16,551 nucleotides of DNA from the UHGV virus genome UHGV-0128496; one strand, given 5' to 3'. Shown piece by piece: positions 1,656 to 13,962 of the stretch (within the stretch, counting starts at the first letter, position 1; the number at the start of each line of letters is the position of its first letter). The notes beneath the pieces were generated by a model. The model was given only the letters and a program-made list of their open reading frames with translations, made no database searches and was not told the origin of the DNA. Source of the stretch: a virus. Position numbers and translations under genes: made by a program.

Positions 1656-1695
1656 AGTTATTTCTCCATTATCCCGGCTGCACCCGGGGAAAATT

Positions 1696-3052: not shown

Positions 3053-3271
3053 TTAGTCCTCCCTGTACGGATTTAATTTGTTGTGCAGTTTGTTAAATGG
3101 CCCCCATACGATGGAGCTATACCACTCAGCTATCTTTTCTGCCTGTTCTCCTGCTAACCAGATGAGGACTATCGGTGATATTGGAATCATTAAAATAAGA
3201 AAGAGAAGGAAAAATAGAGCCTCTTTAACACGGCTTTGGCGCGGATAATTCTTCAGGAATATTTTGGTCAC
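3053..3271 (-). CDS. Small hydrophobic (membrane) protein, 72 aa
   Basis: GTG start overlapping the stop of the upstream HNH gene (GTGA). Strongly hydrophobic central segment ALFFLLFLILMIPISPIVLIWLA suggests one transmembrane helix. Confidence 0.45.
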   Translation of the reverse strand: MTKIFLKNYPRQSRVKEALFFLLFLILMIPISPIVLIWLAGEQAEKIAEWYSSIVWGPFNKLHNKLNPYRED

Positions 3272-3645
3272 AAGTTATCCCCCTCTTGATACCGCTCGAA
3301 CCAGAACACAACTGGTGCGTTAGTCTGTTTAACCAGGCCAAATGATTCCGCTGTGCGGTAACTTCTTGACGCACGGCGAGTTACATCAACCTGAGTGGCT
3401 ATGCGGCTGCGAAAGTCTTCTACTGTGCTGCACATTTTGAACAAGTTGCATGGAATGCATGCTGGAACCATGTTGCTGACCGTGTCATTTTCTGGCCTGT
3501 CCATTGCGTAGCCGTTGCTGATATTTCTTCGTACCGCTTCTACATGGTCTGCATGCCACTTATCGCCAAGTTCACAGCCGCAATAAGCACAGCGACCGCC
3601 AAACTTCATGCGCAGTTCTGCACGCTGTTTTTTCGTCAGTGCCAT
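3268..3645 (-). CDS. HNH endonuclease
   Basis: CAYCGC ... WHADHVEAV ... N ... VPACIPCN: HNH core (His-Asp-His, Asn) flanked by two CxxC zinc ligand pairs. Start lies 1 nt from the upstream gene's stop. Confidence 0.75.
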   Translation of the reverse strand: MALTKKQRAELRMKFGGRCAYCGCELGDKWHADHVEAVRRNISNGYAMDRPENDTVSNMVPACIPCNLFKMCSTVEDFRSRIATQVDVTRRASRSYRTAESFGLVKQTNAPVVFWFERYQEGDNL

Positions 3646-3646
3646 C

Positions 3647-4204
3647 TCATTCCCCCTTCACGCCAATGCCAGCGGCGGCACGTTCGGCTTCACTTTGTTC
3701 CCAAAACCACTTGTGAAGCGCCATAAGCTCTTCGTCAATCGGTGCATATTTGCGGTCAAAGTAGGCCTGAGCATCTTTCTCAGATTCGTCAGGCAATTCA
3801 CCAGGCCCAAACAGCGTGTTATAAATCCATGACAGCCCGTTCTTAGCGTCACCAGTTGCCTGCCATTCGATAATCGCAGCTTGCATGACCAGAATGTTCT
3901 TCCCGATTAACAGGTCCAGTTCTTTGTGTCGGTTGCAGATATATGCATTCTCTCTCTGTAATTCAGCATTGCGCTTCTCTGCGGCTTCCAGCTCATCCAG
4001 CAGCGCCAGTACGGTGGGCGGGTTGGCGGCGGCGATGAATGCCGAATCAACTTTAAGGCAGTGTTGAGCTACCGCCTTTGCACCAACTTTTACTTCATAT
4101 CCTCTCGCGCCTTTGTGTGGCTTATACGACTCCCATTTACCCCATGAAGCTATGTTTGCGGCATTGTCCGCTTCACGCAACGCCTGTTTGTTGAGTGCTT
4201 TCAT
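3647..4204 (-). CDS. Ead/Ea22-like early-region protein (hypothetical)
   Basis: 185-aa ORF with N-terminal MKALNKQALREADNAA and a coiled-coil-like middle, resembling what I recall of Ead/Ea22-like prophage proteins. Its ATG overlaps the upstream stop (ATGA). Confidence 0.5.
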   Translation of the reverse strand: MKALNKQALREADNAANIASWGKWESYKPHKGARGYEVKVGAKAVAQHCLKVDSAFIAAANPPTVLALLDELEAAEKRNAELQRENAYICNRHKELDLLIGKNILVMQAAIIEWQATGDAKNGLSWIYNTLFGPGELPDESEKDAQAYFDRKYAPIDEELMALHKWFWEQSEAERAAAGIGVKGE

Positions 4205-4455
4205 TGGGCTGCTCCCTGTCTGGCGCTATTCAATAGCTGGTTAAACATCATGGTTAGGCTGTTACTGCACCCAAACGGCATATCGTTAACACGGTATGTT
4301 GGAATGCCCTTGCGAACACCAGACTTCACGATCCGGCCTGTGCCATAGAGTTGCGATAATGCTCCGGCGACCGCTGGCGTCGTTTTGTTCATGCCTTTGG
4401 CGATTTCACCGCTGGTGGTATTTGGATGAGCCTGGAGATATTCAAATACGGTCAT
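4201..4455 (-). CDS. Small DNA-binding (winged-helix-like) protein, 84 aa
   Basis: ORF coupled on both sides by ATGA overlaps. The segment TTSGEIAKGMNKTTPAVAGALSQLYGTGRIVK looks like an HTH recognition unit. Confidence 0.5.
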   Translation of the reverse strand: MTVFEYLQAHPNTTSGEIAKGMNKTTPAVAGALSQLYGTGRIVKSGVRKGIPTYRVNDMPFGCSNSLTMMFNQLLNSARQGAAQ

Positions 4456-4619
4456 GGCGTTTTACCTTTACGTTCCTGTTCCAGTTGCACCAGAGACTCT
4501 TTTAATGCTGCGAACGTAGCTTCTAGTCTGGTGGCGACTTCGCGCATAAGCGGTGCATGCTTTGGTGGCAATTCAGCAACGGAGGCAAACGCCTCCGCTA
4601 CGAGTTCTTTTACCTTCAT
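4452..4619 (-). CDS. Unannotated small ORF (55 aa) coupled between the HD and wHTH genes
   Basis: Hand translation gives MKVKELVAEAFASVAELPPKHAPLMREVATRLEATFAALKESLVQLEQERKGKTP. It is below the 60-aa cutoff of the ORF track. Its ATG overlaps the HD gene stop (ATGA) and its TGA overlaps the ATG of the next gene. Confidence 0.4.
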   Translation of the reverse strand: MKVKELVAEAFASVAELPPKHAPLMREVATRLEATFAALKESLVQLEQERKGKTP

Positions 4620-5155
4620 GCGGCGCATTGGCGCTGCTCCATCAATTCGTTAAAGCGATTGATGAACATGCCGTATGACTGGCCAGGACGAACTGGATTG
4701 ATAATGAATAAATCCGTTGGGACAACTCCCTCGAGGCATGGCCACACGGAACCTTCGTCAACCTCAAAATCGCGGCGTTCGCTGGCGAGCATCACCAGAT
4801 CGGCATATTTCACAGTTGGGTGTTGTTCCGTCGGTAGGCCGAACTTCTGCCGAATGGCTGCATCCACGCGAGCTTCGATCACCTGGTAATCCGGAAGCAG
4901 GTGCTTAAGCGGGGATGGGATGTCCTGCAGGTAGGCTTCAGCAGCATCATGAAGCAGTGCTTCTAATGCAAACTCCTGCGGAACGAGGTGGCTGGTTAAA
5001 ACGCTATGCTGGCCGACGCTATAAAACTCAGGAAGATGCCCTGCAAAACGGCAGATATGAGACAACGCGGTAGCAATATCCTCGATCACGATATCGTCCT
5101 GTTGGATATCGAGGTAATTAAAATGTTTGCCGGATAATGTCTGAATGTAGCTCAT
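4616..5155 (-). CDS. HD-domain phosphohydrolase (YfbR-like 5'-deoxynucleotidase family)
   Basis: H...HD metal-binding signature (QHSVLTSHL ... LLHDAAEAY). I place the start at the ATG at 5155 (MSYIQTL...), preceded by GGAGAAAA; the track ORF begins at a GTG at 5182 with no SD. Confidence 0.7.
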   Translation of the reverse strand: MSYIQTLSGKHFNYLDIQQDDIVIEDIATALSHICRFAGHLPEFYSVGQHSVLTSHLVPQEFALEALLHDAAEAYLQDIPSPLKHLLPDYQVIEARVDAAIRQKFGLPTEQHPTVKYADLVMLASERRDFEVDEGSVWPCLEGVVPTDLFIINPVRPGQSYGMFINRFNELMEQRQCAA

Positions 5156-5262
5156 GGTTTTCTCCATATTGGCGCGCTGCACCGCGCTATTAAATTAATG
5201 AATTGCTAAATTTAGCGTGCAGCAACCCAACCCATGACATGGGTTAATTACGGTCTGGGGTA

Positions 5263-6180
5263 TTAGGCTGCGGGTTTTTGTGGCTGTTCTTCTTTGTACG
5301 AAAGAAGATCACACATCAGGTTTACTACTTTGCTGAATTGGATTAGATCCGTCCCGGCCTGATGGCGCCATTGAAATGCTTTATCATCTTCATCGTTGAA
5401 TGTTTGGGCTTGGGTATTGATGCGCGAAAAATGGAAATTTTCGGTGAGGATGAACGATACACCGCATCCTGCTAGCTCCATTTTATCAGCGGTAAAGCCG
5501 CTATTAAGGCTATCAACTAGCTCGCTTTGAATTGAGTCGTGTTCAGCTGAGTAGCGAATAACTTCATTTTGATCGGCAAGGCGGGACAGCTGGATATAAT
5601 TGCCGACGGTAAACCCTTCAAAAGCATTGGCCACGCCATTGATATAGTTTTTCAACCGCGTAGTTAAACCGTTCTTAATATCGCTAATGTTGATTGTTTC
5701 TGTTTTAACGGAACCGACAACTTTCACCAGCATAGCCACAGCCATACCGGCAATATTTTTATTGGTCGTATTGACCACTAATAGCTTTTCGTTGGTGCTG
5801 TACAACGCAAGGATCAGCGTTGATTTAACAAATGCCCGTTTACACAGGTCAACGCGGACGCTGTCGATAATTGCTAATCGTTCGATACGTTTGATTTTAC
5901 TCCCGGACATATCTTCGATTCTTTGGATCCGTGCTGCGGCTTCCTTCAAAACAACATGCTGGGGAATGATTTTCTGATCATGGCGGATCACGATGGCATA
6001 CCCACCTGATATTGGGGTGACCAATTCGCCAGTGATCGGGTTTGGCACAAAAGAGGCGCGTGAAAACTCAGTTTCACCAATCTCGGAGTAGGGGAGTTCA
6101 AGCAGATGCCCCTCGATAGCTTCAATGCTAGGTAGTGTGGCGCGGTACACGATTGCGTTACGGAACTTAGGTAATTTCAT
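5263..6180 (-). CDS. rdgC: RdgC-like recombination-associated protein
   Basis: 305-aa ORF whose length and sequence pattern (N-terminal FRNAIVYR, central hydrophobic core, C-terminal acidic tail) match my memory of E. coli RdgC (about 303 aa). AGAGGAAAG RBS 5 nt upstream of the ATG at 6180. Confidence 0.65.
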   Translation of the reverse strand: MKLPKFRNAIVYRATLPSIEAIEGHLLELPYSEIGETEFSRASFVPNPITGELVTPISGGYAIVIRHDQKIIPQHVVLKEAAARIQRIEDMSGSKIKRIERLAIIDSVRVDLCKRAFVKSTLILALYSTNEKLLVVNTTNKNIAGMAVAMLVKVVGSVKTETINISDIKNGLTTRLKNYINGVANAFEGFTVGNYIQLSRLADQNEVIRYSAEHDSIQSELVDSLNSGFTADKMELAGCGVSFILTENFHFSRINTQAQTFNDEDDKAFQWRHQAGTDLIQFSKVVNLMCDLLSYKEEQPQKPAA

Positions 6181-6513
6181 TTAACTTTCCTCTGCACAAG
6201 GTTTTAGTCCATACACGAAGTTAAGGCGGCTGCCACCGCCGAACTTTCTCCATACACAACAGAGAAGGGCACCTGCATTAGTCGGCGGCTTGAGAGACCG
6301 CTTTCTTTTTGCCCGGGTGGATTGGGTTATGAGCCCGTCGCCCGGTGATGCCCTTTTCTGTTGTGCCCTGAAAAAGGCTGGCGGTTACCGGAAATACACG
6401 GGAAAACACCGGGCCGCCAGAACAGGGAGTTACTTGTTATTGCTTTAGCCTGCTTTTAACCACATCAGGCGCGGTGGTATCTTGGTGTTCTCACACAACC
6501 AAGAGGGATGTTT

Positions 6514-7018: not shown

Positions 7019-7048
7019 ACTATAGCTACTTTAAGTAGATAATTGCAA
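7019..7048 (-). promoter_or_regulatory. PL-like leftward early promoter with embedded operator
   Basis: On the minus strand: -35 TTGCAA (7043-7048), 18-bp spacer, -10 TATAGT (complement of 7019-7024). The spacer contains the inverted repeat CTACT-TTA-AGTAG (7026-7038), the same motif found in the cI-cro intergenic region. Degenerate AGTAG half-sites lie at 7057-7061 and 7076-7080. Confidence 0.4.
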
Positions 7049-7110
7049 CAACAAAAAGTAGAAAATGAAATTTTTAGTAGTGTAGTGTTATGAGGTGAGG
7101 AATTGGAGGC

Positions 7111-7140
7111 GTAAAAAAAACCGGCTTTCGCCGGTTTCTT
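7111..7140 (-). terminator. Rho-independent terminator ending the cI transcript
   Basis: Stem CCGGC (7121-7125) / GCCGG (7130-7134) with TTTC loop, flanked by A8 on the plus strand. On the minus strand this reads hairpin plus U8, 14 nt past the cI stop. It is much weaker in the plus orientation (TTTCTT). Confidence 0.6.
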
Positions 7141-7153
7141 GATGAATTAATTA

Positions 7154-7873
7154 TTAGCCAAACTCTATCATTTTTAGAGGTAAGCATCTGATTAGCTTGC
7201 CGAATATGTATAGTTCATTCATTTCATGCTCCTCTATGAAGAAGGGCGGGTAATGTTCATTGTCTGAAAGAACTGCCAGTCGGCGCCCTTTTACCTTCTG
7301 CAAACGTTTAACGAACGTACTGTCTTCAAAATTGAACACATAAACGCCGTCGCCGCTGAATTGTTCAACCTTGCTGTCTATGAAAAGCAGGTCCTTTGGG
7401 CAAAGCGTGGGCATCATGCTATCGCCATCAACATTTATCATGACGATGCCATCAAGGCTTCTACGACCAAACAACTCGAAGATCCTCTCTTCTGGAATCT
7501 CTATTGAGCTCACTATTGTAGGGAATGGTTGGTTTATATATCCGGAACCGGCTGAAGCATGAACATCCAATTGCTCTATTCTGACCGTGCCTTTGGCTGG
7601 CGCGTCGCCACCATTAACAGGCACACCATAATCAAGATAAGCCGGTGAGACGGCAAGTCTTTCTGCAATTCGAATCATCTTCTCATCTCTCGGCTTTGCA
7701 GTACCAAGAGTGTAGCGCCGCGCCATCTCATACGAGACACCACTGAACTCTGACAATTCTTTAACTCCAATAGATTGCTCTTGGAGAGACCTGTTTAGCC
7801 TTTCGGCAAAGTCTTTGTATTTAGCATTTTCCACCATAAGTAGAAGATTAAGCGCACAAGGCATAGTTGTCAT
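7154..7873 (-). CDS. cI: CI-like prophage repressor (N-terminal HTH, C-terminal S24 LexA-type peptidase)
   Basis: HTH segment VKELSEFSGVSYEMARRY; S24 self-cleavage signature VDGDSMMPT (Ser) and FVKRL (Lys). Coordinates are the maximal ORF. The in-frame ATG at 7837 (MVENAKYKDF...) is the more likely start: a PRM-like promoter (-35 ATGACA, complement of 7868-7873; 17-bp spacer; -10 TAATCT, complement of 7845-7850) would place the transcript start at that ATG, giving a leaderless mRNA as for lambda cI. Confidence 0.85.
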   Translation of the reverse strand: MTTMPCALNLLLMVENAKYKDFAERLNRSLQEQSIGVKELSEFSGVSYEMARRYTLGTAKPRDEKMIRIAERLAVSPAYLDYGVPVNGGDAPAKGTVRIEQLDVHASAGSGYINQPFPTIVSSIEIPEERIFELFGRRSLDGIVMINVDGDSMMPTLCPKDLLFIDSKVEQFSGDGVYVFNFEDSTFVKRLQKVKGRRLAVLSDNEHYPPFFIEEHEMNELYIFGKLIRCLPLKMIEFG

Positions 7874-11325: not shown

Positions 11326-13255
11326 AATTATCGTTGATAACTTTGCTGGTGGCGGCGGCGCGAGTACCGGCATTGAACTGGCGATCGGGCGTAGCGTGGA
11401 TATCGCTATCAACCACGACGAAAACGCTATTGCGATGCATAAGACGAATCACCCTGACACGCTGCATTATTGCGAGTCGGTGTTTGACGTTGACCCAAGC
11501 GCAGCCACCAGCGGTAAACCTGTCGGTCTGGCCTGGTTTAGCCCTGACTGCCGCCACTTTTCCAAGGCGAAGGGCGCTAAGCCGGTTAAGAAAGAGATTC
11601 GCGGGCTGGCGTGGATTGTCCTGCGCTGGGCGCTGGCAGTACGTCCCCGCGTCATGATGCTGGAGAACGTCGAAGAGTTTAAGACATGGGGCCCGCTGCT
11701 GGATGAAGAATTACGCCCGGATCCTGAGCGTGCTGGCGAAACATTCGAGGCATTTGTCGGCATGCTGTCGACGGGGATCGCGGCGAATCACCCTGCGCTG
11801 GCTGAGGTTTGTGAATTCCTTGCCATTGAGCCGCACGGCCAGCAGGCGCAACAGCTGATCGCCGGGCTTGGTTATGAGGTTGATTATCGGGAGCTGCGCG
11901 CATGTGACTACGGCGCGCCGACGATCAGAAAGCGTTTCTTCATGGTCATGCGCTGTGACGGCCGCAAGATTCATTGGCCTGAAGCGACTCATGGGGATCC
12001 AAAATCACTGGAAGTACAAAGCGGCAAGCTGGCGCCATGGCGTACCGCGGCGGAGTGCATTGACTGGAATATCCCGGCCCGGTCCATCTTCGACCGCAAA
12101 AAGCCGCTGGCGGAAAATACGCTCAAACGTATCGCGCGCGGCATCCAGCGCTTTGTTATCGAAAGCGCATCACCTTTCATCGTGAAGTGTAACCACACCA
12201 CGACGAAAGGAGGTTATGACTGTTTCCGCGGGCAATCGTTGTTAGAGCCATTGCAGACCATCACTAAAAAGCATGGCTACGCACTGGCGGTACCGCATCT
12301 TACTAAATTCCGCACCGGGGCCACCGGGCAGCCAGTGACCGAGCCGGTACCAACTGTCACCGCTGGTACGTCGGCGCGCCCGGGCGGGAATGGGCATGCG
12401 CTTGGCGTAGTTGAGGCCGCCCTGACACCGTTCCTGGCTGGCAATGGCGGCAGTGAGTACCAGGCAAAGCCGCGCCCGCTGGATAAACCCGCTCATACAA
12501 TCCTCAAGCAGTCCCGCGCGTGCGTGGTTGCGCCGGTCATCGCCCGCCAGTTTGGAGCCAGTGTTGGGCACAGGGCTGACGAACCGAGTGCGACGATTAC
12601 TGCAGGTGGTGGCGGTAAGTCGCAGCTGGTAACTCCAACACTGATCCAGATGGGGTACGGCGAACGCCCAGGGCAAGAACCGCGTGTTCTTCAACTGAAT
12701 AACCCGCTCGGCACGGTCACTGCTGGTGGTAATAAGTTTGCAACGGTGAGCGCGTTCCTGGCGAAGCACTATGGTGGGAATTACACGGGGCCGGGTGTTG
12801 GTATGGATGAGCCTGCCCACTCAGTCACTACTGTTGATCACCACGCGGTAGTTGCGTCGCACCTGGTGAAGCTGCGCGGAACCTGCCGCGACGGTCAGAC
12901 CATGGATACACCTATGCCGACGATTACCGCTGGTGGCCAGCACGTTGGCGAGGTCCGGACATTCCTCGAAACCTACTGCGGTGATAGCGAGGATGAATGG
13001 CTGGTGACGATCGAGGGGGTTAAGTACCAGATCGTCGATATCGGAATGCGCATGCTGCAACCGCATGAGCTTTATAAGGCGCAGGGCTTCCCTGACGGCT
13101 ACGTTATCGATCAGGACTATCGCGGCAATCGTTACGCCAAAGACAAGCAGGTAGCGCGCTGTGGTAACGCAGTACCGCCGCCGTTCGCTCGTGCGCTGGT
13201 AGAAGCAAATCTTCCTGAATTATGTGCAAATCAAAAGGCGGGTGCAGCCGCCTGA
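11318..13255 (+). CDS. DNA cytosine-5 methyltransferase (large, repeat-containing variable region)
   Basis: Motif I FAGGGGAS, an ENV motif (MLENVEEF) and C-terminal CGNAVPPP; the Cys motif reads SPDCRHFS rather than canonical PCQ. Start taken at the ATG at 11318 (MREIIVDNFAGGGG), overlapping the Dam stop; the track ORF extends upstream in the same frame. The region between the catalytic and C-terminal motifs holds about five P-x-x-T-[VI]-T-A-G-G repeats. Confidence 0.8.
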   Translation: MREIIVDNFAGGGGASTGIELAIGRSVDIAINHDENAIAMHKTNHPDTLHYCESVFDVDPSAATSGKPVGLAWFSPDCRHFSKAKGAKPVKKEIRGLAWIVLRWALAVRPRVMMLENVEEFKTWGPLLDEELRPDPERAGETFEAFVGMLSTGIAANHPALAEVCEFLAIEPHGQQAQQLIAGLGYEVDYRELRACDYGAPTIRKRFFMVMRCDGRKIHWPEATHGDPKSLEVQSGKLAPWRTAAECIDWNIPARSIFDRKKPLAENTLKRIARGIQRFVIESASPFIVKCNHTTTKGGYDCFRGQSLLEPLQTITKKHGYALAVPHLTKFRTGATGQPVTEPVPTVTAGTSARPGGNGHALGVVEAALTPFLAGNGGSEYQAKPRPLDKPAHTILKQSRACVVAPVIARQFGASVGHRADEPSATITAGGGGKSQLVTPTLIQMGYGERPGQEPRVLQLNNPLGTVTAGGNKFATVSAFLAKHYGGNYTGPGVGMDEPAHSVTTVDHHAVVASHLVKLRGTCRDGQTMDTPMPTITAGGQHVGEVRTFLETYCGDSEDEWLVTIEGVKYQIVDIGMRMLQPHELYKAQGFPDGYVIDQDYRGNRYAKDKQVARCGNAVPPPFARALVEANLPELCANQKAGAAA

Positions 13256-13269
13256 TATGGAGAAATAGC

Positions 13270-13962
13270 ATGAATCAGTTAACCGCTAAGGGTGTTGTGA
13301 CAATGTCCAGCCGTGAAATTGCCAGGCTGGTGCAGAGCAAACATGGTGATGTGAAGCGCTCAGCTGAGCGCCTTGCATCTGCTGGTATTTTAACCGCGCC
13401 GTTGGCGCACACCCCCTACACACACCCGCAAAACGGGCAAACCTACGAGGAGTATTGGTTTAACAAACGTGATTCTCTGGTGATCGTCGCCAGGCTGTCG
13501 CCAGAATTTACCGCCGCTGTTGTCGATCGCTGGCAAGAGCTGGAGAACAGCCAGGCCGTAAGTGTCCCGCAAACATTGCCGGAGGCATTACGTCTCGCCG
13601 CGGATCTGGCCGAGCAGAAAGAACAACTCAGCCAGCAGTTAGCCGCTGCCGCGCCGAAAGTTGAGTTTGTCGATCGATATTGTACTGCCAAAGGCTCAAT
13701 GTCTTTCCGCCAGGTGGCAAAGCTGTTGCAGGCCAAAGAGACCGATTTCCGCTTGTTCCTCATTGAGAGCGGCATTTTGTACCGGCTCAGTGGAGTGCTG
13801 ACACCTCGGCACCAGCACATTGCTGCCGGGCGGTTTGAAGTGAAAACTGGCACTACGAGCGAAACAAACTACGCCTTTAGCCAGGCACGTTTTACACCCA
13901 AAGGCATCGAGTGGATCGGCGGCCTGTGGACGGCACACATCGCTAAGGGGCATGCCGCGTGA
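13270..13962 (+). CDS. Rha-family regulator / antirepressor (Rha N-terminal domain plus KilA-C/ANT-like C-terminus)
   Basis: N-terminus MSSREIARLVQSKHGDVKRSAERL resembles the Rha domain; C-terminal EALRLAADLAEQKEQL ... KVEFVDRY resembles ANT/KilA-C. GGAGAAA RBS 5 nt before the ATG at 13270. Confidence 0.65.
   Translation: MNQLTAKGVVTMSSREIARLVQSKHGDVKRSAERLASAGILTAPLAHTPYTHPQNGQTYEEYWFNKRDSLVIVARLSPEFTAAVVDRWQELENSQAVSVPQTLPEALRLAADLAEQKEQLSQQLAAAAPKVEFVDRYCTAKGSMSFRQVAKLLQAKETDFRLFLIESGILYRLSGVLTPRHQHIAAGRFEVKTGTTSETNYAFSQARFTPKGIEWIGGLWTAHIAKGHAA

Follow-up and report, generated by a model that had tools for sequence, protein, structure and literature searches.

The viral genome UHGV-0128496 (16,551 nt, the whole of which we call the window) is a lambdoid prophage at the yecE/yecN/cmoA site of E. 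coli. Three overlapping genes in its early-left operon were analysed, all on the minus strand: one for a YfdR-type HD phosphohydrolase of 179 aa (4616–5155), one for a small protein of 58 aa (4452–4628) and one for a minimal winged helix-turn-helix (wHTH) protein of 84 aa (4201–4455). The upstream neighbour of the HD gene is an rdgC-like gene (5263–6180, minus strand; Pfam RdgC, E 8e-33; rdgC in RefSeq). Between the two lie a palindrome (5229–5245) and, in the 5′ untranslated region of the HD gene, a stem-loop, GCGCG-GTGCAG-CGCGC (5172–5187). An initial annotation, made from the sequence alone, had located both repeats correctly, with GTG 5182, the start of the maximal open reading frame (ORF), falling within the loop of the second. 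We read the block as three separately exchangeable accessory genes together with two putative hairpins that would act at the RNA level, and give this reading a probability of roughly 0.6.

The HD, 58-residue and winged-helix genes

The HD protein is identical to YfdR of E. coli K-12, from the cryptic prophage CPS-53, at 113 of 178 positions (63%) over its full length and without gaps (E 2e-89), and it matches PHROG 318 (E 3e-95). The metal-binding motif of the HD superfamily, H...HD...D, is present (H50, H69-D70, D119); across 37 homologues H50, H69, D70, D78 and D119 are invariant and E73 is nearly so. Conservation of the motif and the identity to YfdR bear out the initial assignment as an HD phosphohydrolase, and since the catalytic residues do not vary, the enzyme is probably active. 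The AlphaFold2 (AF2) model is all-helical with a predicted local distance difference test score (pLDDT) of 88, and its best matches are HD proteins. The sole good fold match is Atu1052 of Agrobacterium tumefaciens (PDB 2GZ4; template modelling (TM) score 0.75–0.77 in Foldseek), which is also the best sequence match (E 2e-13) yet only about 26% identical; as a structural-genomics deposit of unknown function it adds no mechanism. OxsA, YfbR and HDDC2 match weakly (Foldseek E > 1 for YfbR). The HD protein shares with E. coli YfbR (PF12917) the HD fold and a local motif, HDxxE(x4)D-x-P-x-P-x-K, over which the two align, but it scores below the curated cut-off of Pfam YfbR-like (22.1 against 25.9 bits) and that of NCBIfam NF003009 (YfbR; 17.8 against 122).

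The supported start of the HD gene is ATG 5155, with GGAGA at 5165–5161, and homologues including K-12 YfdR begin MS(F/Y)I. We considered GTG 5182 as the start of a genuine N-terminal extension, but it lies in a conserved hairpin loop and homologues do not keep it in frame with the ATG; we regard it as the start of the maximal ORF only. The ratio of non-synonymous to synonymous substitution rates (omega) is 0.04–0.07 for the HD gene, and 0.03–0.23 for the HD and wHTH genes taken together. Two HD allele classes exist, that of the window and that of locus L154 with about 50 similar loci, at 70% protein and 48–76% DNA identity. Diversifying selection between them was rejected: dN is 0.24 and dS is saturated, which indicates old divergence and recombination.

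The middle ORF, which had been described as unannotated, is in RefSeq as a 58-aa hypothetical protein (WP_001253787.1; PHROG 12248). It is a real gene under purifying selection, and its coding status had been anticipated correctly. The ratio of non-synonymous to synonymous polymorphism (pN/pS) is 0.13 in the reading frame of the gene but 1.06 and 3.1 in the two alternative frames; in the E. coli-type allele, 65 distinct DNA versions encode 22 protein versions, and 38 of the 65 polymorphic sites are at third codon positions. Public databases list the protein both with 55 and with 58 aa. The 55-aa form starts at 4619, the second in-frame ATG, which forms the ATGA overlap with the HD gene and had been taken as the start codon. 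Members of the family begin M-x-x-(L/M/V/H)-K-V-K-E-L-V, and residue 4, the methionine of the ATGA, is Leu, Val or His in many of them, with the codon GTA in some Klebsiella loci. The ATG nine bases further upstream and a GGAG eight bases before that ATG are always present. Because these are constant and the ATGA methionine is not, the start shared by the family is ATG 4628, and the gene most likely begins there, overlapping the HD gene by 13 nt. Translation would then start inside the end of the HD gene from the gene's own Shine-Dalgarno sequence (GGAG, 4637–4640, minus strand, 8 nt before the ATG), which is kept in the junction variants. Re-initiation at 4619 is possible as an additional start.

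The small family is a narrow one; among 1.84 billion proteins it accounts for about 20 clusters at 50% identity. Its N-terminal ~46 residues are conserved and its tails are variable; the protein is probably helical. We considered whether it might be a truncated YfdS or YfdT (hhalign probability < 1%) or a relative of a solved structure (no PDB match with E < 0.6) and rejected both. The gene follows and overlaps a YfdR-type HD gene in E. coli, Citrobacter and Salmonella, in Klebsiella and in the phages Flotzy and phiNP, as it does for four of five divergent representatives of the family. There are two exceptions. In locus L176 (~2140–2800) unrelated DNA replaces most of the HD gene, the last ~40 nt of which remain before an intact pair of small and wHTH genes. 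In L316 (445–649) the family member P0219 has no upstream HD gene, and a GCGCG-GTGCAG-CGCGC leader is fused directly to the small gene; ParB-like and DndB-like genes lie downstream of it. The reverse association fails: of the 280 phage records that contain this HD gene, most are without the small gene.

The third gene encodes a winged-helix protein, as first proposed (PHROG 1687, E 8e-25). In the AF2 model (pLDDT 84.5) residues 1–56 fold as a winged helix of three helices and two strands (helices 3–9, 15–21 and 26–39, strands 42–48 and 51–56, pLDDT > 90), and residues 66–82 form a C-terminal helix. Foldseek matches are MepR/SlyA/MarR (probability 1.0), ArsR/SmtB, TFE-alpha and Z-alpha; the target-normalized TM score against the MarR-type matches is only 0.35–0.39. 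Pfam gives sub-threshold matches to FaeA, FeoC, MarR and HTH_24 (MarR 13.1 bits, cut-off 24.6). The fold is that of the 'MarR family' protein of P88, of other PHROG 1687 members and of PapI/FaeA/FeoC-type proteins. True MarR repressors, in contrast, have ~140 aa and N- and C-terminal dimerization helices, which the 84-aa protein lacks, and we do not assign it to the MarR repressors: the core fold agrees, but the dimerization domain is missing and the Pfam score is below cut-off. A C-terminal motif, N-x-(M/L)-P-F-G-C-x-N-x-L-x3-F-N-Q-L-L, is kept down to relatives of 39–45% identity. These are proteins of the P2-like phage P88 and of Stx phages, where no HD gene is nearby; in P88 an Ead/Ea22-like gene follows the wHTH gene, as in the window.

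The three ORFs are chained by ATGA overlaps, which can be read at 4619–4616 and 4455–4452 as first reported, an arrangement that agrees with the packing for coupled translation proposed at the time. A third ATGA at 4204–4201, absent from the initial annotation, joins the wHTH stop to the start of an ead/Ea22-like gene (3647–4204, minus strand; Pfam Ead_Ea22, E 1e-14), and an HNH gene begins one base past the stop of the latter. Because the chain continues into the ead/Ea22-like gene, it does not delimit the trio, which is only part of a more extended series of closely packed genes.

The notion that the HD gene and a DNA-binding partner form a module was examined in 140 non-redundant related loci and was not supported. 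HD, small and wHTH genes occur together in 90 of them; a further 42 have HD and small genes without the wHTH gene, five have the HD gene alone and two the wHTH gene alone. Klebsiella prophages, Flotzy and phiNP have HD and small genes without the wHTH gene. The wHTH gene occurs without the HD gene in P88 and Stx phages, and YfdR-type HD genes are mostly without the wHTH gene. Sliding identity plots show mosaicism below the level of the gene. In one class of loci the HD body has 48–76% DNA identity to the window between a similar leader and a small + wHTH block of 94–100%, with a breakpoint near 4650; in another, HD and small genes are kept and the wHTH allele is 68–76% identical. Megablast alignments break at 5236, 5187, 4201 and 4171, and mosaic breakpoints overall lie at ~4650, ~4400, 4201, 5187 and 5236. 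The HD and small genes are therefore a stable pair, the wHTH gene is an independent neighbour, and the trio is a mosaic and no fixed module.

Hairpins between rdgC and the HD gene

The palindrome AACCCATG-T-CATGGGTT (5229–5245, minus strand) would form an RNA hairpin of 7–9 bp, 18 nt past the rdgC stop. In 16.5 kb chance should give about one perfect inverted repeat with arms of at least 8 bp; the window contains five and its shuffles 1.66 ± 1.37. Taken by itself the palindrome thus lacks significance, and its support comes from a hairpin being kept at this position in relatives. The sequence itself has no second copy in the window at up to three mismatches, and among relatives its perfect form is restricted to loci that share the rdgC allele. 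At other loci linked to rdgC the hairpin reads AACCCAT-GTA-ATGGGTT, CCCAT-AAGC-ATGGG or CCCAC-ATC-GTGGG, a series with a compensatory change of stem (CCCAC/GTGGG) and with the loops GTA, AAGC and ATC. Where the upstream gene is another one, as at most loci that carry the wHTH gene, the position is taken by TCGCC-NNNN-GGCGA or TCACC-NNNN-GGTGA, after which comes a similar GGG(A)TT..TGCA tract. The centre is thus 1, 3 or 4 nt long across relatives while the stems change in a compensatory manner. Since stems compensate and loops vary in sequence and length, we read the palindrome as a hairpin and not as a dimer site of fixed spacing. The first proposal, that it is a site for a dimer of the wHTH protein, is hard to reconcile with a perfect form tied to one rdgC allele and with a different hairpin at most wHTH loci. 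An operator of the cI/Cro type or of another dimeric repressor was likewise rejected: there is a single copy with no adjacent promoter-like site, the spacing varies and most wHTH loci lack it. An intrinsic terminator was also considered, but the stem is followed by GGGTTGCTG without a U-tract, and the minus-strand terminator scan does not list it. The stem-loop would probably act on the transcript, for example as a 3′ stabilizer or processing mark, and not as a wHTH operator.

The TCGCC-NNNN-GGCGA hairpin lies ~70–95 nt upstream of the HD start (L076, L080, L082, L112 and others). It has about 15 different tetraloops (including ACCC, AACC, ATCC, GCCC, ATAT and TTCT) on a stem and flanks that are almost invariant, and the compensatory stem TCACC/GGTGA is found in mEp460, K-12 and L110. 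Its loop may be either a mutational hotspot or under diversifying pressure.

The second hairpin, GCGCG-GTGCAG-CGCGC (5172–5187, minus strand; loop 5182–5177), is one copy of a cassette that combines a stem-loop with a Shine-Dalgarno sequence, here ATGGAGAAA (5159–5167, minus strand), 3 nt before the HD start codon. A second copy, CCCGG-GTGCAG-CCGGG (1673–1688, minus strand), is followed by the same 9-mer at 1669–1661 and by the start of xis at 1655 (gene 1419–1655; DUF1233 excisionase match, E 3e-32). The third, GGCGG-GTGCAG-CCGCC (13237–13252, plus strand), is followed by the 9-mer at 13257–13265 and by the start of ant at 13270 (13270–13962; Rha and ANT domains). The ant ORF was called mechanically from 13222, but both the cassette and homologues (MNQLTAKGVV...) point to 13270 as the true start. 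The stems of the three copies differ and their loops and Shine-Dalgarno sequences are identical. The pattern GTGCAG-N7-16-GGAGAA occurs three times in the window, against 0.03 expected, and none of 200 shuffles reaches three. Upstream of rdgC (6189–6253, minus strand) are degenerate remnants in tandem, ATGGAGAAA at 6253–6245, GGCGG-TGGCAG-CCGCC at 6240–6225 and CCTT-GTGCAG-AGG at 6201–6189, which look like scars of successive module exchanges. Some 35 nt upstream, still within the HD leader (5211–5222), a GCUGCAC is complementary to the loop plus one base (GUGCAGC, 5177–5183); this is probably fortuitous, as it is not kept in the other leader type (CGTGCAAC).

The hairpin accompanies HD alleles of 64–100% amino acid identity, K-12 yfdR included. 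Its stem is GCGCG/CGCGC, GCGCT/AGCGC, CGCG/CGCG, GCAG/CTGC or, in L315, TCAG/CTGA, and its loop is constantly GTGCAG (TTGCAG in L315). Over 22 distinct HD leaders, pairing is kept in 86% of cells, each of the five pairs has changes on both sides and none of 500 shuffles reaches the score. A multi-gene set of 68 distinct instances, chosen without reference to the stem, has 81% of cells paired, 86 double-change cells and a covariation score of 0.59; the corresponding values in shuffles are 53%, 34 ± 5 and 0.19, and slid controls score 0.18 at most. A scan of IMG/VR was bimodal. Among the matches listed, at least 66 have four or more contiguous stem pairs and all of these precede real ORFs; about 50 have 0–1 stem pairs, are rarely followed by a long ORF and are read as chance matches. 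The genes behind the cassette, again among the matches listed, encode YfdR-type HD proteins, several excisionase-like families, Rha/KilAC and KilA-N antirepressors, one RdgC and one copy of the small protein. In loci that had not been fetched with the pattern, GTGCAG-type loops are the commonest among 5-bp hairpins just 5′ of ribosome-binding sites. The cassette is absent from lambda and from the regions of P22 that were scanned, Rfam gives no covariance-model match at 5100–5300 (E up to 1), and a literature search on GTGCAG/GUGCAG hairpins found nothing relevant; the original papers on boundary sequences were outside that search.

The cassette hairpin, whose GUGCAG loop is constant and which stands immediately 5′ of the Shine-Dalgarno sequence, is probably a post-transcriptional element, and would serve as a 5′ stabilizer or insulator or as the binding site of a shared factor. 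A broader claim is more tentative, and we hold it to be doubtful: a subset of the temperate phages of enterobacteria may share an undescribed cis-regulatory RNA element, of which GCGCG-GTGCAG-CGCGC would be a copy. This element may consist of a 5-bp stem of free sequence and a constant GUGCAG hexaloop, 3–9 nt before a Shine-Dalgarno sequence of the AUGGAGAAA type, and may precede genes of sensitive function, namely those of at least five excisionase-like families and of Rha/KilAC and KilA-N antirepressors, HD genes of the YfdR type and, in some cases, rdgC. If so, a single trans-acting protein or RNA that reads the loop could co-ordinate excision, antirepression and control of host replication post-transcriptionally, and such a common operator would be a new layer of control over prophage excision and antirepression. 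The trio adds little by itself, a new set of YfdR alleles and two small phage proteins, and the cassette is the part that deserves attention. The nearest known elements are the boxB (nut) hairpins, which also have 5-bp GC stems and a conserved loop and occur in early transcripts. The loop of the cassette is GUGCAG, however, and not a GNRA-like pentaloop, and there is no boxA; moreover, the cassette adjoins ribosome-binding sites deep within operons and on both strands, not just after promoters.

Both repeats could instead be DNA-level 'boundary sequences', recombination linkers by which gene modules are swapped, with no role in RNA. Short conserved boundary sequences at gene junctions have been proposed for some phage genomes, lambdoid ones among them (PMC3233612), and could be the same thing as the cassette. 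Breakpoints at 5236 and 5187, and just 5′ of the cassette in several loci, speak for this explanation, as do the tandem remnants upstream of rdgC and the direct fusion of cassette and small gene after HD loss in L316. Linkers, on the other hand, need no pairing, whereas in the cassette stems differ between copies and pairing is kept by compensatory changes; differing stems also cut the homology that is available for recombination. The short distance to the Shine-Dalgarno sequence and start codon is fixed, and every structured copy among the matches listed precedes a real ORF. A purely DNA-level function is unlikely in our judgement, and it partly overlaps with the reading of separately exchangeable genes and RNA hairpins.

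Proposed roles of the proteins

K-12 YfdR is a weak nucleotidase of deoxynucleoside monophosphates (dNMPs), binds DnaA through Phe46 of DnaA domain I and competes moderately with DiaA and DnaB; yfdQ and yfdR together with yfdS or yfdT inhibit initiation at oriC when present in multicopy (PMC4776307). Binding to DnaA domain I and inhibition of oriC are known for K-12 YfdR only (PMC4776307). Given 63% identity, the HD protein of the window would be a weak 5′-deoxynucleotidase that also binds DnaA domain I and damps initiation at the host oriC. The two genes resemble each other in further respects: the proteins are of nearly the same size (179 and 178 aa), both genes lie in a lambdoid early-left operon, the downstream gene overlaps the HD end (by 10 nt for yfdS, 13 nt here), and the 5′ region has the same three hairpins, including GCGC-GGTGCA-GCGC followed by GGAGA in K-12. 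A yfdP-yfdQ-yfdR-type cluster was found to be fairly common in lambdoid early-left operons (survey, PMC12315714), and the order YfdP-DUF2303-HD is seen in the related loci L314 and mEp460.

The small gene occupies the place that yfdS has in CPS-53, directly after the HD gene, and its product is most likely an accessory partner of the HD protein. More tentatively, this 58-aa protein may be the missing cofactor through which proteins of the YfdR type become effective against DnaA; since the family is found almost always directly after YfdR-type genes, it is the obvious first candidate for why YfdR needs helpers against initiation. The wHTH protein would be an independent module, often followed by an Ead/Ea22-type gene.

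Several points weigh against these proposals. The DnaA effect of YfdR was seen in multicopy only and required YfdQ plus YfdS or YfdT, and its authors allow that it could be an artefact (PMC4776307). The gene upstream is rdgC here, but yfdQ (DUF2303) in CPS-53. The genes downstream are unrelated to YfdS (DUF551) and YfdT, and the small protein has no homology to either. One and the same small-gene allele is found coupled to HD alleles that share only 70% identity, which argues against tight allele-specific co-adaptation of the pair. As for the hairpins, the minimum free energy fold of the whole intergenic RNA does not contain the palindrome hairpin and its z-score, only –1.25, is not significant against shuffles; breakpoints also coincide with the hairpins, so that a DNA-level role is possible.

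One alternative keeps the enzyme and drops DnaA. The HD protein might be purely a dNMP or nucleotide phosphatase that reshapes the pools of deoxynucleotides, with a function like that of phage T5 Dmp, such as the starving of defences that rely on nucleotides, DnaA binding being irrelevant. The catalytic His, Asp and Glu residues are invariant across the family, and the label of PHROG 318 is the product name of T5 Dmp, a possible functional analogue that illustrates what depletion of dNMPs can do: it can defeat Kongming and affects Clover. Related HD genes are also found in many virulent and jumbo phages, in which control of host replication is less obviously relevant. T5 Dmp is not a homologue that could lie behind the label, however. 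It has no sequence similarity to the HD protein (no significant BLASTP alignment, best E 2.8) and no HD motif, its putative active-site residue being Asp22 (the D22A mutation abolishes dAMP phosphatase activity). In addition, YfdR's affinities for nucleotides reportedly fall far below those of YfbR (as cited from Zimmerman 2008 in PMC4776307), the Pfam YfbR-like score is below its cut-off and structural matches to YfbR are weak. We consider a phosphatase role to the exclusion of DnaA improbable, although it too shares part of its ground with the preferred reading, in which the HD protein would be both nucleotidase and DnaA ligand.

The HD superfamily includes cyclic-nucleotide phosphodiesterases, and a model built on the initial annotation combines the trio and the palindrome into one module, in which a wHTH dimer on 5229–5245 would control an HD enzyme that degrades signalling nucleotides for anti-defence. 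Adjacent, overlapping genes here and in ~90 of 140 loci and a perfect, intergenic palindrome speak for it, but we think it very improbable, given wHTH genes without the HD gene in P2-like and Stx phages, HD and small genes without the wHTH gene in Klebsiella prophages, Flotzy and phiNP, a palindrome that is limited to one rdgC allele, missing from most wHTH loci, of varying centre length and without a second copy in the window, no PADLOC defence-system match for any of the three genes, and a closest characterized relative, YfdR, that is not a cyclic-nucleotide phosphodiesterase.

Neighbouring genes and transcription signals

In megablast searches a 1.17-kb block containing the trio is 99.9% identical to a chromosomal E. 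coli prophage. The block is present in 45 of 5,426 complete E. coli genomes; Nissle 1917 carries it at 95.7% identity. In the closest E. coli record the gene order is a cI-like repressor, rdgC, three 'hypothetical proteins', ead/Ea22-like and, further on, a 3′-5′ exonuclease, an excisionase and an integrase, past which lie the host genes yecE (DUF72), yecN and cmoA. The best explanation for the region is a non-essential part of the early-left operon, transcribed leftward after induction or infection. The exo-xis region of lambda (including Ea22) has the same operon position and a similarly mosaic set of small early genes; published work connects it with inhibited replication of host DNA and with the choice between lysis and lysogeny (PMC10834534). 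Only the ead/Ea22-like neighbour is homologous, however; lambda lacks the HD, small and wHTH genes and the cassette.

An arrangement suggested by PMC12315714 would place rdgC in the cI transcript and the leftward early promoter in the interval from rdgC to the HD gene; it was considered and rejected. There is no promoter-like site in 5156–5262, and a terminator-like hairpin and a promoter-like site sit just past cI instead. In that stretch (7019–7172, minus strand) a perfect 8-bp hairpin with a T-run (7118–7137) and a TTGCAA-18-TATAGT site (7048–7019) are a candidate immunity terminator and a candidate leftward early promoter. A weak, sub-threshold match to Rfam STnc370 (E 0.85) covers 7110–7172.

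The C-terminal residues 73–172 of the ead/Ea22-like protein match the PADLOC model 'DpdH' (E 2e-34); either the model contains a prophage domain, or the domain is common to Dpd systems. The HNH gene downstream (3268–3645, minus strand) encodes a 125-aa endonuclease with weak PtuB-like matches in PADLOC (E 2e-06). At this position the best E. coli match (L001) has other genes, and the window differs there from its closest relative.

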